Shown: positions 3,401 to 21,367, counted from the first letter of the stretch. The stretch: 64,000 bases of DNA from an uncultured Actinomycetes bacterium (GCA_963780745.1 CAWACT010000007.1:32909-96908); one strand, 5' to 3'. Made by a program: numbers and translations. Notes: generated by a model from the letters alone, not told the origin.

Positions 3401-4141
3401 CTATCGGCGACTCTCGTTGGTCAATGCGGTGGCCGCTTGACCGGCCAGCAGTACCGCGATGACCTGCTGGTCGAAGTCCACCGTGCCGCCGGGCCGCGGC
3501 TCGAGGACGAAGCGTCCCAGCGACGTATCCTGGTACCGGACCGGCAGGTCGAGACCTCCAGGGGGGAGCTCGAAACCGGTGCGGCGGGCCACCAGGACAC
3601 CGGACGAGCCGAGCAGGCCGTCGGTGCCGAGGACGGCACGGGATCCATCAGGCTCACCGGGCTCGAAGCGGGCATCGCGCAACTCGAGCTCGGCGACCAG
3701 GGCGGCCCGGACCGCCTCGACGACCTCTTGGGCATTCGCCCCGGCCAGCACCAGCTTGGACACGTCGTTGAGCCGCTGGAGCTCGGCGTGGTGGGCCCGC
3801 CCCTTGCGCCGCTCCCCCTCGAAGAACTGCGCCAGCTCACCCACGACCAGTCCGATGACCACCAACAGCAGGGTCGTGATGAGGTCTTCGCGCGAGTCGA
3901 TGTCGAGGCTCAGGTAGGGCTGGGTGTGGAAGAAGTTGAAGGAGAGCCCGGCCACCACAGCGGTCACAACACCGGCGACGCGTCCCCCGGCAGCCGCGGC
4001 AGCAACGACGACCGCCAACAGGATCAGCGCCACGTTGGTGTTGCCCATCCAGTCGCGTAGCGGTCCAAGCGCCATCGCAATGAGTAGGACCGCGATCCCA
4101 CCCCCGGCGGCCGCCAGCCAGTCGACACGATCCTGTCTCAT
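3401..4141 (-). CDS. DUF4118 (KdpD-type membrane sensor domain) plus GAF-like domain protein; start overlaps kdpE stop (ATGA)
   Basis: MRQDRVDW...ALILLAVVVAAAAAGGRVAGVVTAVVAGLSFNFFHTQPYLSLDIDSREDLITTLLLVVIGLVVGEL is a DUF4118 signature. A GAF-like C-terminal half follows. The longer ORF to 4372 is an upstream extension into kdpE. Confidence 0.55.
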   Translation of the reverse strand: MRQDRVDWLAAAGGGIAVLLIAMALGPLRDWMGNTNVALILLAVVVAAAAAGGRVAGVVTAVVAGLSFNFFHTQPYLSLDIDSREDLITTLLLVVIGLVVGELAQFFEGERRKGRAHHAELQRLNDVSKLVLAGANAQEVVEAVRAALVAELELRDARFEPGEPDGSRAVLGTDGLLGSSGVLVARRTGFELPPGGLDLPVRYQDTSLGRFVLEPRPGGTVDFDQQVIAVLLAGQAATALTNESRR

Positions 4142-4836
4142 CTCTGCCTCACCTTCCCCGCGTCCGGTTCGAAGCGGTAGCCCATGCCCGGTTCGGTCAC
4201 GAAGTACCGCGGCCGACTGGGGTCGGGCTCGAGCTTGCGCCTGATCTGGGCCATGTAGACCCGGAGGTAGTTGGTCTCCTCCCCGTAGCTGGGACCCCAG
4301 ACATCGTGGAGCAGCTGACGTTGGGTCACCAGCCGCCCGGGGTGGCGGGCGAGCAACTCGACAATGCCCCATTCGGTCGGCGTCAAGCGGACTTCCTCGC
4401 CGTCCCGCTGAACCCTTTTAGCGGCCAGATCTATGACGAAGTCGGCGGTTGTCACCGAGGCCGGCTCGTCGGAGGGCGTGGCTCGTCGCAGCGCCGCCCG
4501 CAATCGAGCGAGCAACTCGCCCATCCCGAACGGCTTGGTCACATAGTCGTCGGCGCCGGCGTCGAGAGCGGCGATCTTGTCCCACTCCCTGTCGCGCACC
4601 GAGAGGACGACGATGGGGACGCTGGTCCACCCGCGCAACCCGCGGATCACCTCTACGCCGTCGATACCGGGTAGCCCCAGGTCGAGGATGACCGCATCGG
4701 GGCGGTGGTTGGCCGCCTCGATCAGCGCCTCCTCGCCGGTAGCGGCAGAGGCGACCTGGTAGCCAATCGCCTTGAGGTTCGTCAGCAGGGCCCGGACGAT
4801 CTGCGGCTCGTCGTCGACGACCAAGACCCTGGTCAC
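4138..4836 (-). CDS. kdpE: OmpR-family response regulator KdpE (GTG start)
   Basis: VLVVDDEPQIVRAL...DAVILDLGLPGIDG receiver domain plus a winged-helix output (LTPTEWGIVELL...YLRVYMAQIRRKLE). It sits immediately downstream of kdpD. Confidence 0.9.
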   Translation of the reverse strand: MTRVLVVDDEPQIVRALLTNLKAIGYQVASAATGEEALIEAANHRPDAVILDLGLPGIDGVEVIRGLRGWTSVPIVVLSVRDREWDKIAALDAGADDYVTKPFGMGELLARLRAALRRATPSDEPASVTTADFVIDLAAKRVQRDGEEVRLTPTEWGIVELLARHPGRLVTQRQLLHDVWGPSYGEETNYLRVYMAQIRRKLEPDPSRPRYFVTEPGMGYRFEPDAGKVRQR

Positions 4837-4888: not shown

Positions 4889-7390
4889 TCACAGCGCCGC
4901 CTTGATCCCGACCACCATGGTGGTGCCGCCTCCGGGGGTGTCCTCGACTATCAGTTCGTGCCCCATTGCCTCGACAAGCCCCTGGGCGACGGCTAGGCCG
5001 AGGCCGACGCCGGCACCATCGGGGCTGTCGCCCAGCCGCTGGAACGGTTGGAACACCCTGTCCCGATCCGATTCCGGGATGCCCGGACCCCGGTCGGAGA
5101 TCCTGAGGTCCACCCGGCCCGCCACCTCGCCCCCCGTGACCCGAACCGGCTCTCCTTCGGGCGACCAGGAGACGGCGTTCTCCACCAAATTGGCAACGAC
5201 CCGCTCCAAGAGCGCCGGGTCGGTCTGCACGCTCGGCAGCGACTCGGGCACGTCGATCACGAGCCGGGACGCCACCTCGGGCCGCCCGGCGATCGCCGAG
5301 GTGACCACCTCGTCGAGACCGACCACCTGGAAGAACACATGGACCGCCCCGGTCTGGATGCGCGAGGCGTCGAGCAGCTTGCCCACCATGTTGTTGAGCC
5401 GCTCGGTCTCCGAGAGGATCGCCTCGAGGAAGTCGTCCACTTCCTCCTCTGACCAGTCGACGTTGGTCTCCAACAGGCTGGTCACCGACGCCTTGATACC
5501 CGCCAGCGGGGTGCGCAGATCGTGAGAGACCGCGGTGAGCAGCGCCGTCCGCAGCCGGTCGGTCTCTGCCATCGACTGCGCTGCCGCCGCCTCGACCTGG
5601 AGCTTCCGTGTCTCGAGCACCGCTGCGAGCTGGGCGGTGAAAACGTGGAGCACGTGCCAGTCGTCGGCGCCCAGCCTCGACCCGAGCAGGGCTAGCCGGG
5701 TCCCCGACGCCAGCTCGAGGACCTCGCTGGCCAGCTCCGGTGTCGCCGGCACCGGCTCACCTGCGCTCGCCACCACCTCCCACCCCGTGTCGGTTGGGCG
5801 GAGCACGGCCGCCGCCTCCAACTCGAATGTCGCCCTGATCTGGTGGACGAGGTCTTCGAGCGCGTCGCGGTCGAGAGTGATCGAGCCGGCGAGCGTGGCC
5901 AATGCCTCCGCTTCGCGGCGTGCCCTGCTCGCCTCGGCGGCTCGGCGTGACGCCAGCCCGACTAGTCCACCCACGGCGCCGGCCACGATGAGGAAGACGA
6001 TCAGGGTGAAGAGGTTGGCTGGCTCGGCAATGGTGAAGGTCCCGGTCGGCTCGGTGAAGAACCAGTTCGCCAGGAGGAAGGCGATCACCGAGGCGACCAG
6101 CGCCGGGAGGATGCCGCCCACGGCGGCCACCGCCACCGTGACCAGGAGCAACACGAGCAGCTCGGTGTCGAGCCCGGTCTGCTCACTGAACGGGAGCAGC
6201 GCGGCCGTCGCCAAGACGGGGATGATGACCGCCAGCGCCCATCCGGCGATGCGACGGCGGCGAGGAAGACGCGACCTGGGCAGGTTGGGGGTGGCCAGCC
6301 TCCTGCCGGGCAAACCGGGGTGCGAGATGACATGGACATCGATGGGCCCCGAGCGCCTCACCACTTCCAGGATGGGCGAACCGCGCAACAGCTCCTCCCA
6401 CCGGGTCCGGCGCGAAGCCCCCATCACGAGTTGGGTCGCGTTCTCCGCCCGGGCGAATCGGACCAGCGCCTCGCCTACGTCATCCCCCACCACCTCGTGG
6501 TAGGTGCCCCCCAGATCAGTGAGAAGACGACGCTGGCTGGCCAGCTCATCGGCGGCCTGACTCCCCACGGCGAGCCCGTCCTGGGCGCGCACATGTACCC
6601 CGAGCAGTTCGGAGCGGGCCCGCATCGCCATCCGCGCCGCCCGGCGAACCACGTGGTCGCCCCCGACGAGCCCGGCTATGGCGACCACCACCCGTTCCTT
6701 CGTCTCCCATGAGGCGTCGATCCCGTGGGTCTCGCGATATCGCTCCAGCGCCTCGTCCACCCGGTCGGCGGTCCACGACAGCGCAAGCTCGCGCAGCGCC
6801 CCCAGGTTTCCCGGACGGAAAAAGTTGGCGAGGGCGGCGTCGATCCGCTCCGCCGGATAGATCTTCCCGGCCGCCATCCGCTCCCTGATCCCCTCCTGGG
6901 TCAGGTCAACCATCTCGATCTCGTCGGCGCGCCGCACCACTTCGTCAGGGATGGTCTCCCGCTGCACCACACCGGTGATCGCGGTCACCACGTCGTTCAT
7001 CGACTCCAGGTGCTGGATGTTGAGAGTGGTGATCACGTCGATGCCGGCGGCCAATAGCACCTCGACGTCCTCCCACCGCTTGTCGTGGCCCGAGCCGGGC
7101 ACGTTGGTGTGGGCCAGCTCGTCGATCAGGGCGATGTCCGGTTTGCGGCGCAGCACCGCATCGAGGTCCATCTCCTCGAAGGTGTTGCCGCGATAGGTCA
7201 CGGTACGGCGCGGGATCACCTCGAGACCGTCGATGAGCGCTGCCGTGTCGGGTCTCCCGTGCGTCTCGACCAACCCGACCGCCACGTCCAGGCCCTCGAC
7301 GGCGAGCCGGTGCCCCTCCTCGAGCATGGCGTAGGTCTTGCCCACCCCGGGAGCGGCCCCCAGGAACACCCGGAGCTTGCCGCGGGGCAT
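4889..7390 (-). CDS. kdpD: sensor histidine kinase KdpD (KdpD-N P-loop, Usp, DUF4118 TM, GAF, HisKA, HATPase); intact
   Basis: GAAPGVGKTYAML N-terminus, followed by a membrane block, then SHDLRTPLAGI H-box and an HATPase_c tail (DRGPGIP...GLGLAVAQGLVEAMGH). Confidence 0.92.
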   Translation of the reverse strand: MPRGKLRVFLGAAPGVGKTYAMLEEGHRLAVEGLDVAVGLVETHGRPDTAALIDGLEVIPRRTVTYRGNTFEEMDLDAVLRRKPDIALIDELAHTNVPGSGHDKRWEDVEVLLAAGIDVITTLNIQHLESMNDVVTAITGVVQRETIPDEVVRRADEIEMVDLTQEGIRERMAAGKIYPAERIDAALANFFRPGNLGALRELALSWTADRVDEALERYRETHGIDASWETKERVVVAIAGLVGGDHVVRRAARMAMRARSELLGVHVRAQDGLAVGSQAADELASQRRLLTDLGGTYHEVVGDDVGEALVRFARAENATQLVMGASRRTRWEELLRGSPILEVVRRSGPIDVHVISHPGLPGRRLATPNLPRSRLPRRRRIAGWALAVIIPVLATAALLPFSEQTGLDTELLVLLLVTVAVAAVGGILPALVASVIAFLLANWFFTEPTGTFTIAEPANLFTLIVFLIVAGAVGGLVGLASRRAAEASRARREAEALATLAGSITLDRDALEDLVHQIRATFELEAAAVLRPTDTGWEVVASAGEPVPATPELASEVLELASGTRLALLGSRLGADDWHVLHVFTAQLAAVLETRKLQVEAAAAQSMAETDRLRTALLTAVSHDLRTPLAGIKASVTSLLETNVDWSEEEVDDFLEAILSETERLNNMVGKLLDASRIQTGAVHVFFQVVGLDEVVTSAIAGRPEVASRLVIDVPESLPSVQTDPALLERVVANLVENAVSWSPEGEPVRVTGGEVAGRVDLRISDRGPGIPESDRDRVFQPFQRLGDSPDGAGVGLGLAVAQGLVEAMGHELIVEDTPGGGTTMVVGIKAAL

Positions 7391-7392
7391 CA

Positions 7393-7420
7393 GACGGAAG
7401 ACGGAAGACGGAAGACGGAA
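7393..7420. repeat. (GACGGAA)x4 tandem heptamer array filling the kdpC-kdpD intergenic region, ending 2 nt before the kdpD start codon; no Shine-Dalgarno
   Basis: Four perfect copies read directly. On the coding strand the leader is (UUCCGUC)x4. Confidence 0.55.
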
Positions 7421-7424
7421 GGCA

Positions 7425-8009
7425 TCACGGAGAAGTCTCGCGCTGCTCGAGCGACAGGTTGAGCATCAACACGTTCACAGCTGGCTCGTTGAGGAAGCCG
7501 AGCATGGGCGAAACGGTGCTTTCGTCGATGAGGGCCATCACCTCGTCCACCGAGATCCCCCGCTCCTCGGCTACCCGAGTGGCTTGGAGGCGGGCGTTCG
7601 CCACCGATATGTGGGGGTCGAGACCGGAACCCGAGGCGGTGACTGCATCAACGGGAACGGACTCGTCTGGGTCCAGGCCGTTGAGCTGGCGGTAGGCGGC
7701 GATCCGCTCCTCCACCGATGCAAGTAGGTCTTGATTCAGCGGGCCCAGGTTCGATCCGCTGGAGATGGTGGGGTCGTAGCCGTCACCAGCCGCCGAGGGA
7801 CGGGGGTGGAAGAACTCGGGGGCGGTGAAACCCTGGCCGATCAGCTCCGACCCCACCGCTTGTCCGTCCCGCTCCAGAAGCGATCCGCCGGCATGGTCGC
7901 CAAAGAGCAGCTGGCCGGCACCGGTAACGGCGAGGGTGTAGGCGAAGCCGGTCACCACAGTCATGACGAGGAGCATCAGGATCGAAGGAAGCAGTTGGCG
8001 CCGCATCAC
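7425..8009 (-). CDS. kdpC: K+-transporting ATPase subunit KdpC
   Basis: N-terminal TM helix, then motifs [38 protein letters not shown], typical of KdpC. Confidence 0.9.
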
Positions 8010-10040
8010 ACCAGTCCAATCGCAGTTATGACCACATCAATGAGCTTGATCCCCACGAACGGGATCAGGAGCCCGCCCACGCCATAGACGAGCACGTTGC
8101 GCCGCAAGATCGCCGGGGCACCTGCCGCCCGGAAACGGACCCCGCGCAGGGCCAGCGGAATCAGGGCGACGATGATCAGGGCGTTGAAGATGACCGCCGA
8201 GAGGATCGCCGACTCGGGCGACTCGAGCTGCATGATGTTGATCCGGTCGAGCACGGGGAACACCGCGGCGAACATCGCCGGGATGATGGCGAAGTACTTG
8301 GCCACGTCGTTGGCTATGGAGAAGGTGGTCAGCGACCCACGGGTGATGAGAAGCTGCTTTCCGATCTCGACGATCTCGAGCAGCTTGGTCGGGTTGGAGT
8401 CGAGATCCACCATGTTCCCCGCCTCCTTGGCCGCCTGGGTGCCGGTGTTCATGGCAACCCCCACGTCGGCCTGAGCCAAGGCCGGTGCGTCGTTGGTGCC
8501 GTCACCGGTCATCGCCACCAGCCGGCCCCCAACCTGCTCGCGCCGGATCAGGTCCATCTTGTCCTCGGGCTTGGCTTCGGCCAGGAAGTCATCCACTCCC
8601 GCCTCGTTGGCGATGGCGGCAGCCGTCAGCGGGTTGTCACCGGTGATCATCACCGTGCGGATGCCCATCCTCCGCAGCTCGTCGAAACGCTCCCGGATGC
8701 CCTGTTTGACGATGTCCCTGAGCACGACGATGCCGAGCACCCGGGCACCGTCGGCGACCACCAGCGGGGTGGCGCCCTGCGAGGCGACGTCCGACACGGC
8801 GGTGCTCACCTCCGGCGAGAAGAAACCGCCCGTTGGACTCGACCCAGGCGCCAACCGAGTCGGCGGCGCCCTTGCGGATGCTGCGGCCGTCGGTGTCGAC
8901 CCCGCTCATCCGAGTCTGGGCGGTGAATGGGATGAGGGTCGATCCGCGCAACTCCCGGCCCCGGAGCCCGAACGCGCTCCTTGGCGAGCACGACGATGGA
9001 GCGGCCCTCGGGTGTCTCGTCGGCCAAGCTCGCCAACTGCGCCGCCTCGGCCAACTCGGCCTCGGTGACGCCGGGCGCCGGGATCAACTCCCGGGCCTGG
9101 CGGTCTCCGAGGGTGATGGTGCCGGTCTTGTCGAGCAGCAGCGTGGAGCAGTCACCCGCCGCCTCCACCGCCCGGCCGCTCATCGCCAGCACGTTGGCCT
9201 GGACCAGACGGTCCATCCCGGCGATACCTATGGCGGAGAGCAGGGCGCCGATCGTGGTCGGGATGAGGCAGACCAGCAGCGCCACCAGCACCACGATCTC
9301 CTGCTCGCCACCCGAATAGATGGCGAACGGCTGCAGGCGTCACCACCGCCAGCAGGAAGATGATGGTGAGCCCGGCGAGCAGGATGTTGAGGGCGATCTC
9401 GTTTGGCGTCTTCTGCCGCTCGGCACCCTCCACCAGGGCGATCATCCGGTCGAGGAAGGTCTGGCCGGGCCGGGCAGTGATCCGCACCACCAGCTCGTCG
9501 GAGAGCACCCGGGTGCCACCGGTCACCGCAGAGCGGTCGCCGCCCGATTCACGGATCACCGGTGCCGACTCACCGGTGATGGCCGACTCGTCAACCGAGG
9601 CAACCCCTTCGATCACTTCCCCGTCGCTGGGGATGACCTCTCCGGCCGAGACCACCACGATGTCGTCGAGATCGAGCGCCGTGGCCGCCACCACCTCGAT
9701 GGACCCGTCGGGGTTGCGGCGGTTGGCCGTGGTCTGGGTCCGCGTCCGTCGCAGCGAGTCGGCCTGGGCCTTCCCCCGTCCCTCTGCCATCGCCTCGGCG
9801 AAGTTGGCGAAGAGGACGGTGAACCAGAGCCAGAGCACCACCTGGCCGGCGAACGAGTTCTCGGCGCCGGTCGGCCGAGCCGAGGTCGCGCAACCAGATG
9901 ATGGTGGTGAGCACCGCCCCGACCTCGACGACCAGCATCACCGGGTTGCGCACCATGTGGCGCGGGTCGAGTTTGCGGAAGGCGTCTCCCGCGGCTCGGC
10001 GCATGATCGCCGGGTCGAAACGTCGTACGGCGCGTGCCAT
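8006..10040 (-). pseudogene. kdpB: K+-transporting P-type ATPase subunit KdpB, interrupted by about 4 frameshifts (near 9855, 9320, 8965, 8840)
   Basis: Five ORF fragments in different frames match E. coli KdpB colinearly: [21 protein letters not shown]; [43 protein letters not shown]; [41 protein letters not shown]; [14 protein letters not shown]; [43 protein letters not shown]. Confidence 0.85.
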
Positions 10041-11765
10041 ATCTCCGTTCTCCTAAAGGCTGAGGTGCTCGACGATGGGCCCGAGAGCCCAAACGGGGAA
10101 GAAGGTCAGGCCGGCCACCACCAGGATCACCCCGATGAGAAGCCCGGCGAAGAGGGTCCGGTCGGTGGGGAAGGTCCCTGCCGAAGCGGGAACGGTCTGC
10201 TTGCGCGACCAGCGAGCCGGCGATGCCGAGCACCGGGATGATCAGGAAGAACCGCCCCACCAGCATGGCGATGCCCAGCGTCGGGTGAGTAGAAGCTGTT
10301 GGTGGCGGTCAGCCCGGCGAAGGCGCTGCCGTTGTTGTTCCCCGCCGAGGTGAAGGCGTAGAGGATCTCGGAGAGCCCGTGAGGGCCGGTGTTGAGCTGT
10401 CCCTCGAGACCGGCGGGGAGCAGAGCGCCCGGCGGCGCTGAATCCGAGCACCACCAGGGGCATGGCCAGGATGTAGAGCACCACGAGCTTGACCTCGGCG
10501 GCCTGGATCTTCTTGCCCAGGTACTCGGGGGTCCTCCCCACCATCAGACCGGCGATGAAGACGGTGAGGAAGACGAAGACCAGCATCCCGGTGAGCCCGA
10601 CGCCGAGGCCGCCAGGCGAGATCTCGCCCAGCTTCATGTTGATCATCGGGATCAGCCCGCCGATCGGGGTGTTCGAGTCGTGCATCGAGTTGACCGACCC
10701 GTTGGAGGTGGCGGTGGTGGATGCAGCCCACACCGCCGACAGGGCCGGGCCGAAGCGGACCTCCTTGCCCTCCATGTTCCCGCCCGGCGCCTCGCTCACT
10801 GTCGCCTGGTCGGCGCCGAGGGCGCTGAGGTTGGGGTTGCCGGCGTCCTCCGCCCAGACATTGATGGCGATCGAGCCGAGCAGGAGCAACCCCATCACCG
10901 CGATCAGAGCGAAGCCCTGGCGGCGGTTGCCGACCATCCGCCCGTACATGTCGACGCTGGCGAAGGCGATGGAGAAGAGGGCCCAGGTCGAGAGGAAGTT
11001 GGTCAGCCCGTTGGGGTTCTCGAATGGGTGAGCCGAGTTGACGTTGAAGAAGCCGCCGCCGTTGCTACCCAGTTGCTTGATGGCGATCTGACTGGCGACC
11101 GGCCCGCCCGGGACCGACTGGGTCGCCCCTTCCAGCGTGGTGACCTCGGTGAACCCGTCGAAGTTCTGGATGACTCCTTGGCTGACGAGGACGAGGGCGA
11201 AGACGAAAGCCAGCGGGAGGAGGATGCGGGTGACCGAGCGGGTCATGTCCACCCAGAAGTTGCCGATGGTGTTCGCCCGCCGCCGTGCGATACCCCTGAC
11301 CAGTGCGACCAGTGCAGCCAGGCCCACCGCCGGCGACACGAAGTTCTGCACGACGAGACCGGCGAATTGGGAGAGATGGCTCATCGTCGCCTCACCCGCG
11401 TAGCTCTGCCAGTTGGTGTTGGTCATGAAGCTGACCGCGGTGCTGAAGGCCACCCCCGGCTCGACAGCCGGCATGTCGGTTGGGTTGAGCGGGAGGACCG
11501 CCTGCAGCCGGAGTAGGGCATAGAGGAAGAGCACCGAAACCACGCTGAAGGCCAGCAGCGCCATGGCGTAGCCGGTCCAGCGCTGCTCGACGGTGGGGTC
11601 GATCCCGCAGATCCGGTAGAAGAACCGCTCGATCGGAAGGAAGAAGCGGTCGCCCGGAGCCTTCCCCTCGCCGTAGATACCGGCCATGTAGCGGCCCAGG
11701 ACCACGGTGGTCAACGCGGTGAAGACGACGAGGGCCACGATGAAGACCCAGCCCGGGATGTCCAT
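10041..11765 (-). pseudogene. kdpA: K+-transporting ATPase subunit KdpA, C-terminal region disrupted by about 3 frameshifts (near 10425, 10285, 10195); 3' boundary approximate
   Basis: The main ORF matches KdpA to ...[16 protein letters not shown]. The continuation [34 protein letters not shown] and then [22 protein letters not shown] appear in two other frames. Confidence 0.85.
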
Positions 11766-11854
11766 CAGAACCGTTCGGGGTCGAGCAGGGCGATCACCAG
11801 GTAGATGATCAGCCCGACGGCGACCACCAGCCCGACGATGTTGTCGGCGATCAT
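11765..11854 (-). CDS. kdpF: KdpF (29 aa) small hydrophobic subunit; stop overlaps kdpA ATG
   Basis: Translates to [29 protein letters not shown]. This is a typical KdpF sequence at the typical position. Confidence 0.6.
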
Positions 11855-11881
11855 GGGGCCATCACCTCGGCGTCGGTTGGA

Positions 11882-12007
11882 TCAGGTTCGGTCGGACAGA
11901 GCCGGCTCGTCCTCGCCTCGCTGGATGATCCGGTCGGCGAAGCCGACGTAGCCGACGCACAGCGCGAAGAAGGCGATTGCGATCAGGATGTAGACCAGAT
12001 CAGCCAT
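11882..12007 (-). CDS. 41-aa single-TM peptide upstream of kdpF (MADLVYILIAIAFFALCVGYVGFADRIIQRGEDEPALSDRT); hypothetical
   Basis: Manual translation of the minus strand. It lies below the 60-aa cutoff of the ORF track. It has a hydrophobic core and a charged tail. This is an operon-leading position. Confidence 0.35.
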   Translation of the reverse strand: MADLVYILIAIAFFALCVGYVGFADRIIQRGEDEPALSDRT

Positions 12008-12189
12008 GGCGCCCGTTGTACACCCTGTCGGAGGCAGCGATGCGGCGCCTAACGGGTTCTTGCCGCGCCCGAAATCGATCTTGACGATCCCTTGGCACCC
12101 TCCATCAGCGAACCCAGGGTTCGAAGCGCTGCGGTGCGACTTCTCCAGCCCACGGATCGAAGGACTTCGCGCGAGGTAGGCTCGAAGCC

Positions 12190-14918
12190 ATGGCCGTCGG
12201 CGACCGCAACCGCACCATCATCGACGGGTTCGTCCACCAGTTCCCCGACAACGACCCGATCGAGACGCAGGAGTGGCTCGACTCGCTCGACGCCGTCGTC
12301 GAGCCGAGGAGGGCCAGGTCAGAGGGCGTTTCCTGCTGGCGAAGCTGCTGGAGCGGGCCCATCAGACCGGCCTTGGGGTGCCGGCCACCGTCACCACGCC
12401 CTACGTGAACACCATCCCCACGGAGGAGGAACCTCCCTATCCGGGAGACGAGCACATCGAGCGCCGCATCCGGCGGTTCATCCGCTGGAACGCGGCGGTG
12501 ATGGTGATCAAGGCCAACCACCTCGAGAAGGGGATCGGCGGGCACCTCTCGACCTTCGCCTCCTCCGCCACCCTCTACGAGGTGGGGTTCAACCACTTCT
12601 GGCGGGGCAAGGAAGACGGCAACCCGGGAGACCACATCTACATCCAGGGCCACGCCACCCCCGGCATCTACGCCAGGGCGTTCCTGGAGCGGAGGCTGGA
12701 CGAAGAGCCATCTCGACCGCTTCCGGTTCGAGGTCGATGGCGGCGGGCTGTCCTCCTACCCCCACCCCCGGCTCATGCCCGACTTCTGGGAATACCCGAC
12801 GGTGTCGATGGGGCTGGGACCGATCAACTCGATCTACCAGGCCCGCTTCAACAAGTACCTCCACAACCGCGGGCTGGACGACACCTCCGAGTCCCGGGTG
12901 TGGTGCTTCATCGGTGACGGCGAAGTCGACGAGCCGGAGACACTCGGATCGATCTCGTTGGCGGCGCGGGAGCAGCTCGACAACCTCACCTGGGTGATCA
13001 ACTGCAACCTGCAGCGTCTCGACGGCCCGGTGCGGGGCAGCGGCAAGATCATCCAGGAGCTGGAGGCGATCTTCCGCGGCGCCGGCTGGAACGTGATCAA
13101 GGTCATCTGGGGGAGGGGCTGGGATGAGCTGCTGGCCAGGGACGTCGAGGGGCACCTGGTCAACAAGATGCACAAGACACTCGATGGCCACTACCAGCGG
13201 CTCAGGGCGGAGCACGGCGCGCTACATCCGCGAGAACTTCTTCGGGCCCGAGCCCGAGCTGCGGGCGCTGGTCGAGGACTGGACCGACGACCAGATCTGG
13301 GCACTGCGCCGCGGCGGTCTCGACTACCACAAGATCTACAGCGCCTACCGGGCGGCGACGGAGCTGACCGGCGCTCCCACCGTGATCCTGGCGAAGACCA
13401 TCAAGGGCTGGACGCTCGGGCCCGATGTCGAGGGCCGCAACGCCACCCATCAGATCAAGGAGCTGACCAACAAGCAGCTGCTCGAGCTGCGCAGCCCGGC
13501 TCCACCTCGAGGAGGACATCCCCGAGGAGGCGCTGCAGGGCGATCAGGACCCGCCGTACTTCCGTCCCGGCACCGACTCTCCCGAGTACCAGTACCTGAT
13601 GGAGCACCGCAAGGCGCTCAACGGATCGCTCCCTTCGCGGGTGGTGCGGACCAAGCTGGCGTTGTCGCTTCCCCCCGAGGAGACCTTCACCGAGGTGCTG
13701 GCGGGAGCGGCAAGGTGGAGGCGTCCACCACGATGGCCTTCACCCGGCTGCTCCGCGGTCTGTGCCGGACGCCCGAAGTTCGGCAAGCGGGTGGTGCCGA
13801 TCGTCCCCGACGAGGCCCGCACCTTCGGGATGGATTCGCTGTTCCGCGAGCTCAAGATCTACGCCTCGCAGGGCCAGCTCTACGAACCGGTGGACGCCAA
13901 GATGCTGCTCTCCTACACCGAGTCGCAGGACGGGCAGATCCTGGAGGAGGGGATCACCGAAGCCGGTTCCATGGCCAGCTTCACCGCCGCCGCCACCTCG
14001 TACGCGGTGCGCGGTGTGCCCATGGTGCCCTTCTTCATCTTCTACTCGATGTTCGGCTTCCAGCGGGTGGGCGACCTGATCTGGGCTGCCGCCGACATCC
14101 GGGCCCGCGGCTTCCTGCTCGGGGCGACCGCCGGGAGGACCACCCTCCAGGGCGAGGGGCTGCAGCACCAGGACGGGCACAGCCACCTGCTCGCCTCGAC
14201 GGTGCCGGTGATCGAGGCGTACGACCCCGCCTTCGCCTACGAGGTCGGGTTGGTGATCAAGGACGGGCTGCGCCGCATGTACGGCGACGACCCGGAGGAC
14301 ATCTTCTACTACCTCACGCTGTACAACGAGAACTACGTCCAGCCGCCGATGGCCGAAGGGGTCGAGGCCGGGGTCCTCCAAGGGCTGTACCGCTGGGCGC
14401 CGGCCCCCGAAGGGGACCTGCCCCACCGTGCCACCCTGGCTTTCTCCGGTACAGCTCAGATGGCCGCCCGCCAGGCGCAGCAAGAGCTGGCGGAGCACTG
14501 GGGGGTGGGAGTCGAGCTCTGGTCAGCCACCTCGTTCAAGGCACTTCGTGAAGAGGCGATGAGCGCCGAGCGGTGGAACCGTCTCCATCCCGGACAAGAG
14601 CCGCGGGTTCCGCTGGTGACCCGGCTGCTTGCGGAGACCTCCGGCCCCTTCGTCGCCGTCACCGACAACATGCGAGCCGTCCCCGACCAGGTGAGCCGTT
14701 GGGTCCCCCGTACCTATCTGTCCCTGGGCACCGACGGGTTCGGGCGGTCCGACACCAGAGCGGCGTTGCGCCGCCATTTCGAGACGGACAAAGAACACGT
14801 GGTGCTTGGTGTCCTCACTGCCCTGCAACGCGACGGTGCGTTTGGACCCGAGGTGGTCGGCGACGCAATCGCCCGCTACGGGCTCGACCCCGATCTCCCC
14901 GATCCCTGGCGGCCGTAG
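12190..14918 (+). pseudogene. aceE: pyruvate dehydrogenase E1 component (homodimeric AceE type) with about 6 frame changes (near 12300, 12720, 13215, 13500, 13700, 13775); C-terminal 1.1 kb intact
   Basis: Colinear AceE matches are spread over ORFs 12190/12273/12775/13124/13599, e.g. [99 protein letters not shown]. Confidence 0.85.
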
Positions 14919-15067
14919 GGAGAACAACCTGCGCTCCGCAACAAATCCACCGATGTCGCCGATCGAGGTGGTTGACTCCCCAATCGCATCGGCGTCCGGG
15001 CGGACGGGGCGCGTCGAGAGCGCGACAACGCATCCCGACCCACTCTGCCTGCGAGGAGCCCGGAGCC

Positions 15068-16309
15068 ATGCCCACAGGTCGTCCCCGTTCGCCGTCCAGC
15101 AAGCCCCCCACGACACCGTCCCCCTTCCGTTCCCGGCCCGCTGTCGCCGCCCTCGCCTCTGCTCTGCTTCCCGGAGCCGGTCAATGGCTCCAAGGACGGA
15201 GAAGGCAGGCGGCGCCGTTGCTGGTTCTCTCCGCAGTTGCCCTGGTCTCGGCGGGAGGAGCCATCTGGGTCCTGGCTCGCCAGGGACCCGTTTACATACT
15301 GGAGGTGGCGATGCGACCGGAGGTGCTCGCCACACTGTTCGTGATCAATGCGCTGTTCTTGCTGGTGCGTGGCTGGGCAGCGGCCGACGCCTACCAGCGG
15401 GGAACGGGCGGGAGATCCCGGCTGGGAGCTGCGGCGGGCGTTGCGGTCGTCGCACTGGTCGTGTTGCCCCACGTCGTCGTTGGCGCTGAGGCGGCCGAGG
15501 CCCACCAGATGGTGACCACCATGTTCCAGCACCCGGTGAGGGCACCCAACGCGGAGGCCCCCACCACCACCTGGCGGCCGGGCAGCCGGCTCACCGTCCT
15601 CTTCCTCGGCGCCGAGCGCCTGCCCACCGGAGGCACCAAGGCGCGGGGCGCGGTGGTGGTCACCGTGTTCCCGGGCGACGACCGTGTCGCCGCGGTCACG
15701 CTCCCGGCGAACCTGACCGGGATCCCGGTGCCGGCGGGGGCGGACGAATCCGCGGGCGACGGTTCGCTCACCGACCTCTATCGATATGGGAGCCGTCACC
15801 AACGCCTCTACCCGGGGGCGCCCGACCCGGGAGTGGCCATGGTGAAAGATGGAGTGCAATCGCTCCTCGGCGTGCCGGTGCATCACGCAGTGGTCTTCGA
15901 TTCGAGCCGTCTCGATGGCATGGACGTCGTGGGGAGCGCACCCAAGCACTGCGCAGGTGCCGCAGTGGTCCGCACCGTTCGGCCCTCGGGGCTGGTTCGG
16001 CGGATGCCCTCGCTTGTCGCCGAACTGGGCGACTACGTCACCAGTGACATCCCCCTGGACCTGGTCCCGGAGATGGTCGAGCTGTTGCCCAATCTGTCCC
16101 CGCGCCAGGTGGTGACCGTTCCCATCACCGCCCCTGACTACGGGTGGGTCGAGGCGGCGTCGCAGGTGGCCGACCCGGAGCGGGTCCGCGCCGCCATGGT
16201 GAGCCTGGTGAAGCTGTCACCCGAGGAGGCGGCGGCCCGTCTCGGTCTCGGTGACCCGGGCCGCTGCGCCACCGGCCAGGCGGCACAGGCCGCCCCAGAC
16301 AACCGGTGA
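15068..16309 (+). CDS. LytR-CpsA-Psr (LCP)-like membrane protein with Pro-rich N-terminus; motifs degenerate
   Basis: TM segment, then TVLFLGAERLP...RGAVVVTVFPGDDRVAAVTLPANLTGIPVPAG and SLLGVPVHHAVVFDSSRLDGMDVVG, which resemble the LCP core blocks. Confidence 0.4.
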   Translation: MPTGRPRSPSSKPPTTPSPFRSRPAVAALASALLPGAGQWLQGRRRQAAPLLVLSAVALVSAGGAIWVLARQGPVYILEVAMRPEVLATLFVINALFLLVRGWAAADAYQRGTGGRSRLGAAAGVAVVALVVLPHVVVGAEAAEAHQMVTTMFQHPVRAPNAEAPTTTWRPGSRLTVLFLGAERLPTGGTKARGAVVVTVFPGDDRVAAVTLPANLTGIPVPAGADESAGDGSLTDLYRYGSRHQRLYPGAPDPGVAMVKDGVQSLLGVPVHHAVVFDSSRLDGMDVVGSAPKHCAGAAVVRTVRPSGLVRRMPSLVAELGDYVTSDIPLDLVPEMVELLPNLSPRQVVTVPITAPDYGWVEAASQVADPERVRAAMVSLVKLSPEEAAARLGLGDPGRCATGQAAQAAPDNR

Positions 16310-16357
16310 TCGGCGCGGGCGGCGGTACCATCCACCGATCCTGACAGCCGTCCGGGT

Positions 16358-18064
16358 TTGCCAGAACTGCCCGGTCGAGGAGCCAGTGTGACCGAGCAGC
16401 AGACCCGATCCGCCCCTCCGGGGCGAACCCCGCGCCACCGCTCCGAGAGCCAGGCACGCCGCCAGGCGAGGCTGCTCACGGTGGTGCTTCTCGTTGTGGC
16501 AGCCGCCGTTGCTGTCTGGCTCCTCCTCGACGTTTTCTCGGGTGACGTTGGCGGCACCGCATCCCCCAGCTCGTTCCCGGCCTCGGCCGGGGAGTCGACG
16601 GTGGCGACCACCACGACCTCCGCTCCCCAGCCGGTGGCGGTCCCTGCGGAGAGCATCGGCGCCCCGTGGGGGACCACCCAGGGAGTCACCATGTTCCGGG
16701 GCAACCCCACCAGGTCGTGGTTCGGTCGGGGAGCACTCGCTGCCACACCCCAGGTGCGGTGGAGCTACCCCGAAGGGGAGATGTGCTCGGTCTCGGTCGA
16801 TCTGGGCGAGGAGTCTGAATGGTGCGGGACCGGATGGACCGGACAACCTCTCGTCTGGACCAACCTCGAGGGGACGACCGAGGTCCTGTTCGGCGGCTAC
16901 GACGGTGCGGTCCATTTCGTCGATGCCGCGACCGGGGAGCCGACCAGGGAGCCCTTCCCGACCGGCGACCTCATCAAGGGATTCGGTGCGATCGACCCCG
17001 ACGGCTACCCCTTGCTCTACTTCGGCTCCCGAGACAACAAGTTCCGCATCGTCGCCCTCGACCGGGAGCCGGTGAGCCAGGTCTGGTCGATGGACGCCTT
17101 CGACGTGGACGGTCTGTGGAATGACGATTGGGATTCGAGCCCGGCAATCGTCGATGGGATCCTCTACGTGGGTGGGGAGAACGGCTGGTTTTACGCCATC
17201 GAGCTCAACCGCACCTATGGCGAGCAGGGCCGGGTGCGGGTCCGACCCGAGGTTCTGTTCTCGGCCCCCACCTATGACGACGAGTTCCTCGACATGCTGA
17301 ACGAGGGCAAGCCGAGACCGCCCGCCGCCGAGCTGCCTCGCGACGGCAGCGGGTCCGACCTCGACTACGACGTCGAGATCAGCGTGGAGAACAGCCCGGT
17401 GTTCTTCCGCAACCGGGTGTATGTCGCCAACTCGGCGGGTCGGATCCTCGGTTTCGACATCAGCGACATCCGCGAGGGACGGGCTCGGGTGGTGTTCGAC
17501 TACTGGGCTGGCGGCGACATCGACGGGACCATGGCGGTGGACCCAAAGGGCCGGCTCATCGTGCCCATCGAGTTCGAGCCCAACGACAAGGCGGGGAAGC
17601 CGCCGATGTCGGAGGCCGAGGCCGCCCATCAGCGGGAGGTCGGGCAACTGGTGAAGCTCGACCCATATGCCGACGGCGATCCCCGGCTCTGGGGCGTGGA
17701 CCTCACCGCCGGCGGCGAGAACGCCGGGATCTGGGCCAGCCCGGTCCTCTACGAAGGGCTTGTGTACGTCCCGACCCACACCGGGGAACTGCTCGCCGTC
17801 AGCGCCGCCAACGGTGAGGTGGTGTGGCGCGATTCGGTCGGTCCCAAGACATGGTCGTCACCGGTGATCGTCGGCGATCAGCTCATCCAGGCCACTTTCG
17901 CCTCCGGCATCCGTGGCTACTCCCTGGCCGACCCCCGACATCCCGAGCGGCTGTGGACGGTTGAGCTGCCAGAGAGCGGGGAAGTCGAGTCCACACCCGT
18001 CGTCTGGGAAGGGACGCTCTACGTCGGCTCGCGCAACGGCTTCTTCTACGCCGTAGGCCGGTAG
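16358..18064 (+). CDS. membrane-anchored PQQ-like beta-propeller repeat protein (TTG start)
   Basis: N-terminal TM, then repeated GxxYVGxxxGxxYAxD-type blades (ILYVGGENGWFYAIE, LVYVPTHTGELLAVSAANGEVVW, TLYVGSRNGFFYAV). Confidence 0.6.
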   Translation: MPELPGRGASVTEQQTRSAPPGRTPRHRSESQARRQARLLTVVLLVVAAAVAVWLLLDVFSGDVGGTASPSSFPASAGESTVATTTTSAPQPVAVPAESIGAPWGTTQGVTMFRGNPTRSWFGRGALAATPQVRWSYPEGEMCSVSVDLGEESEWCGTGWTGQPLVWTNLEGTTEVLFGGYDGAVHFVDAATGEPTREPFPTGDLIKGFGAIDPDGYPLLYFGSRDNKFRIVALDREPVSQVWSMDAFDVDGLWNDDWDSSPAIVDGILYVGGENGWFYAIELNRTYGEQGRVRVRPEVLFSAPTYDDEFLDMLNEGKPRPPAAELPRDGSGSDLDYDVEISVENSPVFFRNRVYVANSAGRILGFDISDIREGRARVVFDYWAGGDIDGTMAVDPKGRLIVPIEFEPNDKAGKPPMSEAEAAHQREVGQLVKLDPYADGDPRLWGVDLTAGGENAGIWASPVLYEGLVYVPTHTGELLAVSAANGEVVWRDSVGPKTWSSPVIVGDQLIQATFASGIRGYSLADPRHPERLWTVELPESGEVESTPVVWEGTLYVGSRNGFFYAVGR

Positions 18065-18245
18065 ACGGCAGACGGAATCAAGCCTCCCCCGGTCAGGAGG
18101 AGGAGGTGCGGATCGGCTCCCCCTCCCGGTGAGGGGAGGGGGTTGGGGGGAGGGTGATTGCCGCCGCTCGGCCCAGTCACCCCCTCCGCTCGCTTGGCTC
18201 GCGCCTCCCCCTCACCGGGGGAGGCAAGAAGGTGCTCCCTCCGCA
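18065..18245. repeat. GC-rich REP-like extragenic element, copy 1, between convergent genes; contains hairpins cccctcccggtgagggagggg and cctccccctcaccgggggagg
   Basis: It shares an ~110-bp core in permuted order with 38027-38201. It starts with GACGGCAGACGGAA heptamers. Confidence 0.55.
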
Positions 18246-18248
18246 GAC

Positions 18249-18872
18249 CTAGACGATCCTTCTGTCGGTTGCCCAGCGGGCGAGCTCGTGGCGGCTGGAG
18301 AGCTGGAGCTTGCGAAGTACCGCAGAGACATGCGACTCCACCGTCTTCACCGAGATCTCGAGACGGCGGGCCACCTGTTTGTATGCGAAGCCGCGGGCGA
18401 TGAGGCGGAGCACCTCCCGTTCCCTCGGGGTCAGCTGGTCGAGGTCAGGATCGGAAGCGGGGACAGATCCGGCGAAAGCATCGAGCACGAACCCGGCGAG
18501 CCGGGGGGAGAACACGGCGTCTCCCTCGTTCACCTGGCGGATCGCTTCCACCAAGTCGGCTGGCGCTATCGACTTCGTCACGTAGCCGCGGGCGCCGGCG
18601 CGAATCATGGCGATCACGTCCTCGGGCTCGTCCGACACTGACAGGGCCAGAAAGCGCACCTCGGTGTCGGCCAGGTTGCGCACTACGGCGATCCCGCCCC
18701 CGCCCGGCATGTGGACGTCGATCAGCACGACATCGGGTTGCGTCGCCCGGATTGCGTTGACCGCATCGTCCACGTCTCCAGACGATCCCACCATCTCGAA
18801 ATGCTCGCCCAACTCCGATCGCACCCCGGCGAGGAACAGCTCGTGGTCGTCGACGAGAAACAGCTTGATCAT
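18249..18872 (-). CDS. LuxR/NarL-family response regulator
   Basis: MIKLFLVDDHELF...VVLIDVHMPGG receiver domain and an HTH LuxR tail (LTPREREVLRLIARGFAYKQVARRLEISVKTVESHVSAVLRKL). Confidence 0.85.
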   Translation of the reverse strand: MIKLFLVDDHELFLAGVRSELGEHFEMVGSSGDVDDAVNAIRATQPDVVLIDVHMPGGGGIAVVRNLADTEVRFLALSVSDEPEDVIAMIRAGARGYVTKSIAPADLVEAIRQVNEGDAVFSPRLAGFVLDAFAGSVPASDPDLDQLTPREREVLRLIARGFAYKQVARRLEISVKTVESHVSAVLRKLQLSSRHELARWATDRRIV

Positions 18873-20089
18873 CCACGCTCCAACCTGAGGTGCACCTCGG
18901 TTCCCTCCCCCGGCACACTGCTCACCTCTGCGGTCCCGCCGTGGCGGCTCATCCGGGCAACGATCGACTCGGCGATCCCCCGCCTGTCGGGTGGGATGGC
19001 GCCGGGGTCGAAGCCCTTCCCCTGGTCGGTCACCCACAAGTCGACGGCCTCGTCCCCCACCTCGAGATACACCGAGACCGACCCGGCGCCGGAGTGTCGC
19101 GCCGCGTTGATCATCGCCTCGCCGGCGGCCCCCACCATCGCCCGCGTCGTATCGTCGAGCGACCTATCACCCACCGCGACCACCTCGACCGGTACATCGA
19201 AGTCGGTCTCGACCCGGTCGGCAGCCGATCGCAGCGCTGCGACCAGTCGCTCACCCTCGACCTCCGGACCCTTCTCATAGAGCCAACGGCGCAACTCCCT
19301 TTCCTGCGCCCTGGCCAGCGTCACCACCCTTCTCGGATCGTCGGTGCGCTGCATCAAGGCGAGCGTCTGCAGCACCGAATCGTGGAGATGGGCGGCCAAC
19401 TCGGCCCGTTCCTCTTGTCGGATCCTCTCGGTGCGCTCCCTACCGAGATCGCGCGCCAGACCCACCAGCCACGGACCGAGCACCAGGGTCACCCCGGCGG
19501 CAGTGACCAATGCCGCCAGGACGACGGTGCCCAACCCGGAGATGGCGTCGATTCCCCCGGCAAACAGCCCCAGCCCGACAAGGAGAAGCAGTCCGCCCAC
19601 GATGAGACGCCCCACCGATCTCTCCCCCCGGTCGCCGGGGAGCAGGAGTCGTGCCTCGCCCCGCCGCCTACTGCTCTCGGAGCGATCCCACATCGCTGCC
19701 AGACCGAAGGCGACCGCGCTTCCGGCAACCATCACGACGTCACCGGGCCAGACCCCGATGCCTCGCAGCACCAGCAATGCACCGGCGAAGACAAGGAGAA
19801 GCCCCAGCCGTTGGCGCCGGTCGATCCCCGGGACGGGCGCAGACTCAGGGCTTGCCTGCTCGGGGAGTATCGCCCAGAGGCCAAGGTAGAGAAACAGACC
19901 CAGCCCATACACGAGTCCAAGCGAGACGAACGCGGCCCTGACGTACACCGGCTCGATCCCGAGCGAGCGGCCCAACCCGGCGGCGACACCTCCGAGGACG
20001 CGTTGCTTTGCGTCGCGATGGATTTCGAGGCGCGGCTTGCTGGCCGTGGCAGATTCCACGGCTCGATGATCCCATGATGAGCGTTGCAC
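18869..20089 (-). CDS. sensor histidine kinase with N-terminal PspC domain (HisKA_3 + HATPase); start GTG/TTG near 20089-20095
   Basis: PspC block (RDAKQRVLGGVAAGLGRSLGIEPVYVRAAFVSL...LGLWAILPE), four TM helices, then AAHLHDSVLQTLALMQ H-box and an HATPase tail. It overlaps the regulator start by 4 nt. Confidence 0.8.
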   Translation of the reverse strand: MQRSSWDHRAVESATASKPRLEIHRDAKQRVLGGVAAGLGRSLGIEPVYVRAAFVSLGLVYGLGLFLYLGLWAILPEQASPESAPVPGIDRRQRLGLLLVFAGALLVLRGIGVWPGDVVMVAGSAVAFGLAAMWDRSESSRRRGEARLLLPGDRGERSVGRLIVGGLLLLVGLGLFAGGIDAISGLGTVVLAALVTAAGVTLVLGPWLVGLARDLGRERTERIRQEERAELAAHLHDSVLQTLALMQRTDDPRRVVTLARAQERELRRWLYEKGPEVEGERLVAALRSAADRVETDFDVPVEVVAVGDRSLDDTTRAMVGAAGEAMINAARHSGAGSVSVYLEVGDEAVDLWVTDQGKGFDPGAIPPDRRGIAESIVARMSRHGGTAEVSSVPGEGTEVHLRLERG

Positions 20090-20152
20090 CGACAATGGGT
20101 GATCACCCTCGCCGCGCCGTCTGGGGCTAGGGGACTCTGGGGGACATCCCCG

Positions 20153-21367
20153 ATGGACTCCGAAGCCTGCGCCCTCCAGGATGAAGCCATGGATGACGAA
20201 GCGACCACAACAGCCACCGAGATACCACCGCCTCCGCCAGATCCGGCGACTGGCCCAATGCCCGCCCCGTCCCTCCACCGGTCGAGATCCCACCGTGTCG
20301 TCGCCGGGGTAGCCCGGGGGATCGCCGATAGGTTCGGGGTCGCCCCCTGGGTGGTCCGAGCCGGGTTCATCGTCCTCGTTTTCGCCGCGGGTGTCGGAGC
20401 CCTGCTCTATCTGGCTGGCTGGCTGCTGATCCCCGAAGAGGGGACCGACAGGTCGGTCCTCGGTATCTCGTCGCCGACCGATACGTCGCTCATCCTCGGG
20501 GTGGCATTGATCGGGATCGGGCTGGCGGTTCTCCTCGGCTGGATGGGAATCGTCCGCGGCGACCTGGTCGTCGGGACGGCGTTGGTGGTGTGCGGGGTCC
20601 TTCTCTATCGGTGGAACCCATCGCGGCCCGATGCCGACGTGGGGCAAACGGCGGACATCTACGCCACCGATGGATCACAAACGGCGATCGTCGAGCGGCA
20701 ACCGGCGGTGCCCCCTCCGCCTCCGCCACCTCCGAAGCCGAGGAAGCCGCCGTCGATGCTGGGGCGCCTGACCATGGCGCTCGCTTTGGTCGCAATAGGG
20801 GTGGTGGCGCTGCTCGACGTGACCGGAATCCTCGCCCCCACCGCCCTCCACTATCTCGGCATCGGTCTCGGAGTCATCGCCCTCGGTCTACTGATCGGCT
20901 CGTTTTGGGGCCGGGCGAAATGGCTGGTGATCCCCGGACTGCTCATTCTCCCCCTGCTATTCGCAGCCCGCTTCTCCCAACTGACCTTGGACTACACCGC
21001 CACCAACCAGGTCATCCGCCCGCTAGAGGTAGACGACCTGCTCCCCGAGTACCGCATCGAAACCGGATCCCTGCTCCTCGACCTCGGTGCGCTCGATCTC
21101 GACGGAGCAGCGGTAGCGGTCGAGGTGTCGGTCGGTGCCGGCGAGCTGATCGTGCAACTCCCCGATGGTGTCGCAGTCGACGCCGTGGTGACCGCCCAGG
21201 CGGGCGAGATCGAAATCCTCGGGCAGCACGCTGCCGGGCTCGACATCCGGCGAGCGATTTCATATGCCGGCGATGAGGGCTCGGTCGACCTCGATGCGTC
21301 TGTGGGCATTGGCACCGCAGAGGTCCGGCTGGGCCGCGAGAGACCGTTTCTCGATCCGAGGAGATGA
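20153..21367 (+). CDS. PspC-domain membrane protein with LiaF-like C-terminal domain; divergent from the kinase
   Basis: HRSRSHRVVAGVARGIADRFGVAPWVVRAGFIVLVFAAGVGALLYLAGWLLIPEE PspC domain, a poly-Pro linker, TM helices, and a C-terminal beta-rich DUF. Confidence 0.7.
   Translation: MDSEACALQDEAMDDEATTTATEIPPPPPDPATGPMPAPSLHRSRSHRVVAGVARGIADRFGVAPWVVRAGFIVLVFAAGVGALLYLAGWLLIPEEGTDRSVLGISSPTDTSLILGVALIGIGLAVLLGWMGIVRGDLVVGTALVVCGVLLYRWNPSRPDADVGQTADIYATDGSQTAIVERQPAVPPPPPPPPKPRKPPSMLGRLTMALALVAIGVVALLDVTGILAPTALHYLGIGLGVIALGLLIGSFWGRAKWLVIPGLLILPLLFAARFSQLTLDYTATNQVIRPLEVDDLLPEYRIETGSLLLDLGALDLDGAAVAVEVSVGAGELIVQLPDGVAVDAVVTAQAGEIEILGQHAAGLDIRRAISYAGDEGSVDLDASVGIGTAEVRLGRERPFLDPRR

Follow-up and report, generated by a model that had tools for sequence, protein, structure and literature searches.

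In Escherichia coli, the kdpFABC pump genes and their kdpDE regulators lie on one strand in the order kdpF-A-B-C-D-E, and the same order is found in the locus described here. Several of its genes carry frameshifts beside intact neighbors. In genuine gene decay, as in Mycobacterium leprae, stop codons, deletions and relaxed selection are seen, and lesions are common to close relatives. Indel errors in long-read assemblies, as Watson and Warr (2019) reportedly pointed out, can also break genes up into spurious pseudogenes. Indels are known to persist in Nanopore bins of low coverage (PMC9262707; PMC12313526). The Microflora Danica MAGs were assembled using Flye (--meta --nano-hq) and one round of Medaka, without short-read polishing (PMC12313526); the same group has stated that such polishing is necessary where the coverage of a metagenomic bin is less than about 40-fold (PMC9262707). 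A further case comes from the allele-specific assembly of Trypanosoma brucei, where merged alleles created frameshifts that were gone once the haplotypes had been separated (PMC8445201).

Here we describe a window of 64,000 nucleotides, the whole stretch of DNA analyzed, in which kdpB, kdpA and the nearby aceE are repeatedly frameshifted (Table 1). The colinearity of kdpF, kdpA, kdpB, kdpC, kdpD and kdpE was established by tblastn with E. coli proteins, by Pfam and by comparison with orthologous loci. Taken at face value, the sequence depicts a soil actinobacterium without a high-affinity K+ pump and without pyruvate dehydrogenase E1, an inference that would be wrong if, as sequence comparison very strongly suggests, the frameshifts are consensus errors of a long-read metagenome contig and not mutations in the organism. 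The kdpFABC-kdpDE system and aceE would then most probably be complete in the cell. We favor artifact over decay because the indels are private to this sequence, biased toward insertion, unaccompanied by signs of decay, associated with assembly type and marked by a tandem-allele signature; the original prediction had leaned the same way, and the private indels, the lack of decay and the assembly-type association strongly support it.

Table 1. Features of the kdp-aceE region, in window coordinates
Feature	Position	Strand	Observations
kdpE, response regulator	4138..4836	-	Intact; complete Response_reg and Trans_reg_C Pfam domains; tblastn match to E. coli KdpE residues 1-223
kdpD, sensor kinase	4889..7390	-	Intact, 833 aa
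kdpC	7425..8009	-	Intact, 194 aa; KdpC Pfam match to profile positions 2-181 of 182
kdpB, P-type ATPase subunit	8006..10040	-	676 aa after removal of four private 1-bp insertions
kdpA	10053..11765	-	569 aa after removal of three private 1-bp insertions
kdpF	11765..11854	-	Intact, 29 aa; read from sequence; stop overlaps kdpA start
aceE, homodimeric pyruvate dehydrogenase E1	12190..14918	+	907 aa after correction of six private events
Core span with all 13 private indels	8829..13762	.	2.6 per kb
ORF fragment of aceE produced by the shifts	13599..14918	+	439 aa; translation identical to database protein P0126

Base-level alignments to three to six relatives bore out every frame change that had been predicted, four in kdpB, three in kdpA and six in aceE, giving 13 in 4,934 bp. 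The 1-bp insertions of kdpB lie at 8829, 8976, 9334-9336 and 9872, and those of kdpA at 10206, 10286 and 10431, while aceE has a 2-bp insertion at 12300-12301, 1-bp insertions at 12708, 13221, 13492 and 13762, and a single 1-bp deletion at 13699, so that the spectrum of the region 8006-14918 is 12 insertions to 1 deletion. The shifts at 13699 (-1) and 13762 (+1) cancel out, so that 21 codons are read in the wrong frame. Searches by tblastn gave a compatible picture, E. coli KdpB matching in five HSPs (frames -3, -1, -2, -3 and -1, or four shifts) and AceE in frames 1, 3, 1, 2 and 3; for kdpA they showed one frame only, because the net change of +3 restores the frame after the out-of-frame stretch 10206-10431. 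A reference-free Viterbi segmentation based on codon usage recovered all 13 frame switches. The absence of in-frame stops and of large deletions was likewise confirmed, with no stop in the 676 + 569 + 907 restored codons (2,152 once the private insertions are taken out) and no deletion longer than 1 bp, and the TGES, DKTGT and GDGTNDAP motifs are present in restored KdpB.

The region 8006-14918 holds 1.9 indels per kb versus 0.25 per kb elsewhere in the window, a local excess with a binomial P of 1e-6 and a scan-statistic permutation P of 5e-5. In alignments to relatives, kdpD had no private indels, and the neighboring stretch 14942-22369 had no private ones of 1 bp. Some 17 further indels are spread across the remainder of the window, and over its whole length 24 frame changes are insertion-like versus 3 deletion-like (P = 5e-5). 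Scattered shifts had been proposed for a series of genes, and most can be upheld: in aat, mgtC, the tandem usp, mmsA, corC, pgpH and one DUF222 copy (54.9-56.2 kb) the Pfam match is split into pieces whose profile coordinates run on from one another, alignment places a shift at 436 in pgi, and tblastn finds frame changes in the other DUF222 copy at about 26-27 kb; that in the hypothetical gene at 51317 is indicated by codon usage alone. Alignment also places shifts at 3334 and 3390, in the 3' end of the KimA-like gene. The long neighbors said to be intact (kdpD, the coxL-like gene, dnaG, sigA, glyQS and lutB) are so, as are kdpE and kdpC.

Comparison with orthologous loci, proposed alongside the original prediction, found all 13 indels to be private to the window sequence and missing from up to six related loci. 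Three JGI contigs (L163, L164 and L165), retrieved by an AceE protein search, have no private indels in these genes and encode a KdpB of 676 aa, a KdpA of 569 aa, a KdpF of 29 aa in which the Potass_KdpF domain is called, and an AceE of 907 aa that is 93% identical, in agreement with the restored lengths. KdpD has the same size as its orthologs in L164 and L165 and is 96-98% identical to those of the closest MAGs; the JGI metagenome scan with KdpD gave a best match of only 64% protein identity. Programmed recoding, by which ribosomal frameshifting or transcriptional slippage would read through the shifts and keep the genes functional, has in its favor only that the restored frames are free of stop codons. 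None of the orthologs is shifted at any of the 13 positions and slippery runs are absent from the sites, which makes this reading vanishingly improbable, and we know of no precedent for thirteen recoding sites across three housekeeping genes.

Genuine and very recent pseudogenization is a further rival, in which real +1 insertions would have inactivated kdpB, kdpA and aceE while the cell kept kdpDE and the KimA-like transporter and oxidized pyruvate by another route. A related MAG contig, L005, does have window positions 7509-12174 (the 5' part of kdpC, kdpB, kdpA and kdpF) replaced by about 148 nt with kdpDE kept; because these genes are truly missing there, pump loss is biologically possible in the clade, and the pump is apparently dispensable. 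One related bin contains two versions of the locus, L003 and L005. Shifts in several other, non-essential genes of the window would be allowed by this reading too. Against it stands the condition of the restored genes, in which stops, larger deletions and a raised dN/dS are all absent, so that 13 indels would have to predate essentially any neutral substitution.

Relaxed selection was looked for in kdpB, kdpA and aceE by the dN/dS analysis that had been suggested at the outset, and the values against relatives (0.04-0.05 for kdpB, 0.05-0.08 for kdpA and 0.11-0.12 for aceE) resemble those of intact orthologs, pairs of which gave 0.025-0.08. At columns conserved in at least 95% of 49-54 orthologs, private changes number 1 of 245 in restored KdpB, adjoining the indel at 9334, and 0 of 103 in restored KdpA; these two proteins were the ones scored, AceE being left out with two outgroup sequences. 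With no stops, no relaxed selection and conserved residues kept, the suggested decay to a dead KdpFABC beside a live KdpDE and a broken pyruvate dehydrogenase E1 is not supported, and we regard pseudogenization as very unlikely.

The reading of the shifts as consensus errors is reinforced by their link to assembly type. The kdpA and kdpB genes of Microflora Danica Nanopore MAGs are frameshifted in 12 of 36 cases, those from other assemblies in 1 of 83 (Fisher P = 1.4e-6). Relatives among these Nanopore MAGs bear private 1-bp insertions of their own in positions not shared with the window, L026 having about 18 of them, L005 at least 35 and L003 two, and no private insertions were found in the coding sequences of the short-read MAG L004 or of the JGI contigs, a distribution that real pseudogenization would not predict. 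In another relative, L006, aceE contains a compensated deletion/insertion pair peculiar to it at 13631/13656, where the JGI AceE proteins match the native frame of the window. The nearest relatives of the window are Nanopore MAGs, and the window itself probably derives from a Flye/Medaka-type Nanopore assembly. A protein identical to the 439-aa aceE fragment has been recorded from a 230,632-bp NCBI/ENA contig, a length compatible with long-read assembly of a soil actinobacterium. Exact-match searches with KdpC, KdpD, the CoxL-like protein and UppS gave no identical entry. Since this fragment has been deposited, public annotation already holds aceE in pieces; the value for curation lies in this separate protein record and in the sister MAGs, where errors of this class affect the same genes.

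The form of the insertions is informative as to their source. Homopolymer-length errors, to which the shifts had been ascribed, are not what was found: among 14 alignable insertions in the window the run length is 1 in nine, 2 in four and 3 in one, with none of 4 or more. Nine of the 14 (64%) adjoin no identical base versus 52% for random insertion, so that homopolymer association falls below random expectation. Instead, 10 of the 14 reproduce the alternative allele that relatives have at a neighboring column, set beside that neighbor, versus 12.7% under the null, or 11% with re-alignment (P ~2e-7). The same signature marks 9 of 17 insertions in L026. Two lineage alleles standing side by side in this way suggest a mixed-strain consensus.

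Spontaneous indels in bacteria are about ten-fold rarer than substitutions and favor deletions and repeat runs. A deletion-biased, repeat-run spectrum of this kind was not found, insertions predominating 12:1 in the region 8006-14918 and lying outside homopolymers, and nothing would lead real insertions to reproduce what other lineages have at an adjacent site; both points weigh further against pseudogenization. A very recent burst of real +1 insertions within about 5 kb, knocking out kdpB, kdpA and aceE and orphaning kdpDE in a group whose members vary in the presence of kdpFABC, is extremely unlikely. If it were true, the likeness of the inserted bases to the alleles of other lineages would hint at unusual recombination or repair between diverged strains.

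Within the explanation by consensus error, the artifact might also stem from plain read noise at low coverage, uninvolved with strain mixing, of which homopolymer miscalling would be a special case. The indels kept by low-coverage Nanopore bins (PMC9262707; PMC12313526) are consistent with this, as are the 4 of 14 window insertions that lack the tandem-allele signature. L005, whose many private insertions do not show it (5 of 35 cases), indicates that plain low-coverage noise also occurs in such data. However, the homopolymer version is refuted by the run lengths, and pure noise predicts neither the frequent match to a neighboring-column allele nor the near absence of deletions; we therefore consider plain noise fairly unlikely as the source.

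Strain mixing in the read pile-up appears the better candidate for what directly produced the errors and made them cluster. Errors would arise mostly at sites where related, co-occurring lineages differ, the consensus retaining both alleles consecutively or, where a multi-base difference is compensated, both of its halves; a second allele retained in this way would add one base and shift the frame. The accumulation at 8.8-13.8 kb may mark the merging of reads from a second, related population, or alternatively a low effective coverage of the assembled strain. Some observations count against mixed strains: the cluster stops at 13.8 kb, with 14.9-22.4 kb clean though equally similar to some relatives, and L164-like substitution alleles make up 10-20% in kdpB and kdpA, no different from their share in kdpD, which is clean. 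The sole mosaic part is aceE at 12.9-14.4 kb, with about 48% L164-like alleles. A substitution-level chimera covering the whole cluster was rejected, as the L164-like share in kdpB and kdpA is not raised relative to kdpD, and so was simple cross-mapping by similarity, which would put the cluster where the window is most like its relatives: the stretch at 1-3 kb matches L026 just as closely yet is clean.

Set beside the known systems, the pump locus resembles that of E. coli in more than gene order, with KdpB 44-74% identical across HSPs and KdpA 42% identical over its full length, while KdpD has 833 aa in the window versus 894 aa in E. coli; once the putative artifacts are removed, its sequence gives no functional difference from the E. 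coli system to report. The likeness to decay of the M. leprae type lies in several frameshifts per gene beside intact neighbors, and ends there, the window genes being without stops, larger deletions, relaxed selection or shared lesions.

Much closer are the Nanopore assembly errors that make spurious pseudogenes (PMC9262707; PMC12007338), with which the window has in common shifts private to one assembly, the lack of other decay and fragmented gene calls, as well as the concentration of lesions in MAGs built from Nanopore reads alone with a single round of Medaka. Unlike the classic errors of this class, those in the window are not of homopolymer length, are nearly all insertions, are strongly clustered and fall preferentially at lineage-variable sites. 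Clustered, non-homopolymer insertions with the tandem-allele signature may help curators to recognize, by comparison, consensus errors from mixed strains that would escape checks aimed at homopolymers. Here the nearest parallel is with the collapsed haplotypes of T. brucei, whose merged alleles are matched by the tandem-allele pattern of the window. T. brucei is a diploid eukaryote, whereas the haplotypes of the window would be co-occurring strains or species of a soil metagenome.

The frameshifts that break kdpB, kdpA and aceE in this window of ~68% G+C are almost certainly an assembly artefact, and the observation of them in the original prediction is confirmed in every detail. We aligned the window at base level to four related loci at 87-93% identity (L026, L003 and L005 from Microflora Danica (MFD) Nanopore MAGs, and the Nanopore MAG L006) and to three JGI metagenome contigs of the same gene order (L163, L164 and L165). 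One extra base is present at each of 8829, 8976, 9334-9336 and 9872 in kdpB, and at 10206, 10286 and 10431 in kdpA; aceE has two extra bases at 12300-12301, one each at 12708, 13221, 13492 and 13762, and one missing at 13699. These 13 events within 4,934 bp match exactly the four, three and six shifts that had been estimated, and the same 13 switches were found reference-free by Viterbi segmentation with a codon-usage model trained on the window's long ORFs. With E. coli protein queries, tblastn recovered KdpB in five pieces (frames -3, -1, -2, -3, -1), AceE in five (frames 1, 3, 1, 2, 3), and KdpA in one frame yet running past its ORF end, because its three +1 events bring the frame back.

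The local density is as extreme as predicted, with 1.9 indels per kb within 8006-14918 versus 0.25 outside (binomial P = 1e-6; scan-statistic permutation P = 5e-5 for local excess of frame changes). Alignment to relatives revealed no private 1-bp indels (those absent from all relatives aligned) in the adjoining 14942-22369; the sole window-private indel in 14.9-22.4 kb is a 6-bp in-frame deletion at 18662, relative to L164, L165 and L005. Outside the cluster, the segmentation gives 14-17 more same-strand frame switches. The scattered shifts proposed earlier hold as well: aat, mgtC, the tandem usp, mmsA (three Aldedh pieces), corC, pgpH and one DUF222/HNH gene give split Pfam matches with consecutive profile coordinates, the second DUF222 copy changes frame by tblastn, and alignment supports shifts in pgi (436) and also at the 3' end of a KimA-like permease (3334, 3390). 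The long neighbours kdpD, coxL-like, dnaG, sigA, glyQS and lutB are intact as described, as are kdpE and kdpC.

Genes of the kdp-aceE locus and examples of insertions that pair alleles of different lineages
Feature	Position	Strand	State or alleles
kdpE	4138-4836	-	intact
kdpD	4889-7390	-	833 aa, intact
kdpC	7425-8009	-	intact
kdpB	8006-10040	-	676 codons once restored
kdpA	10053-11765	-	569 codons once restored
kdpF	11765-11854	-	
aceE	12190-14918	+	907 codons once restored
Insertion	10206		window gcg-C-g; L026 and L006 g, L003 c
Insertion	10286		window has t of 'gtc' (as L026) plus t of 'gggt' (as L164)
Insertion	13221		window gc-G; L164 g
Insertion	13492		window CAG+C; L164 CAG, L163 AAC

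Immediately upstream of kdpF, overlapping its start, lies a small ORF (~11885-12157, minus strand) with a coding score and no Pfam match; counterparts of 46-52 aa are called in all three JGI contigs (L163 1938-2096; L164 and L165 9721-9861).

Real decay of the three genes was assessed by removing the private insertions and reading each gene in the frame of intact orthologs. The restored kdpB, kdpA and aceE contain no stop codons, as had been stated, and comparison with relatives yields dN/dS values of 0.04-0.05, 0.05-0.08 and 0.11-0.12, respectively; the range among intact ortholog pairs is 0.025-0.08. Restored KdpB keeps the motifs TGES, DKTGT and GDGTNDAP; in alignment columns with 95% or higher conservation across a set of 49-54 more distant orthologs, private changes number 1 of 245 in KdpB (adjoining the 9334 indel) and 0 of 103 in KdpA. 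The JGI contigs, free of private indels in the kdp genes and aceE, encode KdpD of 833, KdpC of 193-194, KdpB of 676, KdpA of 569, KdpF of 29 and AceE of 907 aa, the lengths reached by restoration. In bacterial mutation spectra, indels are much rarer than substitutions, and favour deletions and repeat runs; decay would need 13 indels ahead of essentially any neutral substitution, contradicting such spectra, and is very improbable.

The shifts instead follow assembly type. The MFD MAGs are long-read assemblies made with Flye (--meta --nano-hq) and one Medaka round, without short reads (PMC12313526), and the same group found short-read polishing necessary for metagenomic bins below ~40-fold coverage (PMC9262707). 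L026 (~18), L005 (at least 35) and L003 (2) have single-base insertions private to them, at different sites in the same genes and in the flanks; the coding sequence of the short-read MAG L004 and of the JGI contigs has none. Among all retrieved loci with near-full-length kdpA or kdpB, frameshifts affect 12 of the 36 genes in MFD MAGs and 1 of the 83 in other assemblies (Fisher P = 1.4e-6). The shift-made ORF at 13599-14918 (439 aa) is identical to a deposited protein from a 230,632-bp NCBI/ENA contig, a size typical of long-read assembly. In L006, a Nanopore MAG that is otherwise clean, aceE contains a private deletion and a private insertion 25 nt apart (window-equivalent 13631 and 13656) that compensate each other. 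The JGI proteins there side with the frame of the window, so errors that cancel out in pairs can be concealed within seemingly intact ORFs.

The artefact reading offered in the original prediction holds, but the errors are not the homopolymer-length type originally suggested, which we reject. Fourteen window-private insertions could be aligned. Nine of them have no identical base beside them, four give a run of 2 and one gives a run of 3; no insertion falls in a run of at least 4. These runs are shorter than random insertion would give (52%, 28%, 14% and 6% for runs of 1, 2, 3 and at least 4). Insertions outnumber deletions 12:1 in the cluster, and 24 insertion-like frame changes face 3 deletion-like ones window-wide (P = 5e-5). 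In the aligned columns inspected, the extra base mostly matches the allele of other lineages at the adjacent column, which true mutations would have no reason to copy. This tandem-allele pattern marks 10 of 14 insertions in the window (P ~2e-7) and 9 of 17 in L026, against a null of 12.7%, or 11% with random insertions simulated and re-aligned.

Strain mixing probably lies behind the insertions: a consensus drawn from a pile-up of two related haplotypes would retain the two alleles together, or each half of a compensated difference, and thus gain a base. Apparent frameshifts caused by collapsed alleles have been documented (PMC8445201). A related bin holds two versions of the locus, L003 with kdpFABC and L005 with most of it replaced, which indirectly supports mixed populations at this very locus. 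Mixing alone leaves the end of the cluster at 13.8 kb unaccounted for; the position of the cluster is not predicted by similarity to relatives, and the share of L164-like substitution alleles in kdpB and kdpA is not above that in clean kdpD. In L005 just 5 of 35 private insertions carry the signature, which indicates that plain noise at low coverage plays a part too in data of this type.

In L005, ~148 nt (~9732-9879) replace window 7509-12174 (4.67 kb; the 5' part of kdpC, kdpB, kdpA and kdpF), and kdpD and kdpE are retained; the 10,964-bp contig L003 of the same bin has the complete operon, and kdpFABC presence therefore appears variable among co-occurring strains. L164-like alleles occupy ~48% of informative sites in mid-aceE (12889-14388) versus 10-20% elsewhere. 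Across kdpD-aceE (4889-14918), L164 and L165 share 83% identity with the window, rising to 87-90% in the flanks; for L026 and L006 the values are 91-93% in kdp and 78-79% at 14.9-17.4 kb. Such mosaic alignments suggest recombination among lineages, or chimeric contigs.

Elsewhere, a repeat of ~50-110 nt (82-96% identity) is common to intergenic 18082-18226 and 38088-38214, both within segments called non-coding by the codon model. The lowest-GC part (22780-24168 and 25512-27095; 0.615-0.636) is possibly mobile or foreign DNA; ORFs at 22863-24648 have no Pfam matches, and one DUF222/HNH gene (~26.0-27.0 kb) matches the second copy at its HNH end (55806-56251) with 72% DNA identity.

The frameshift cluster is no biological feature, and it is useful solely as a warning to curators and as a possible diagnostic signature of mixed-strain consensus errors. 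The nearest relatives of the window are uncultured Acidimicrobiia/Actinomycetes MAGs, and beneath the errors lies an ordinary kdpFABC-kdpDE operon beside an ordinary homodimeric-type aceE.
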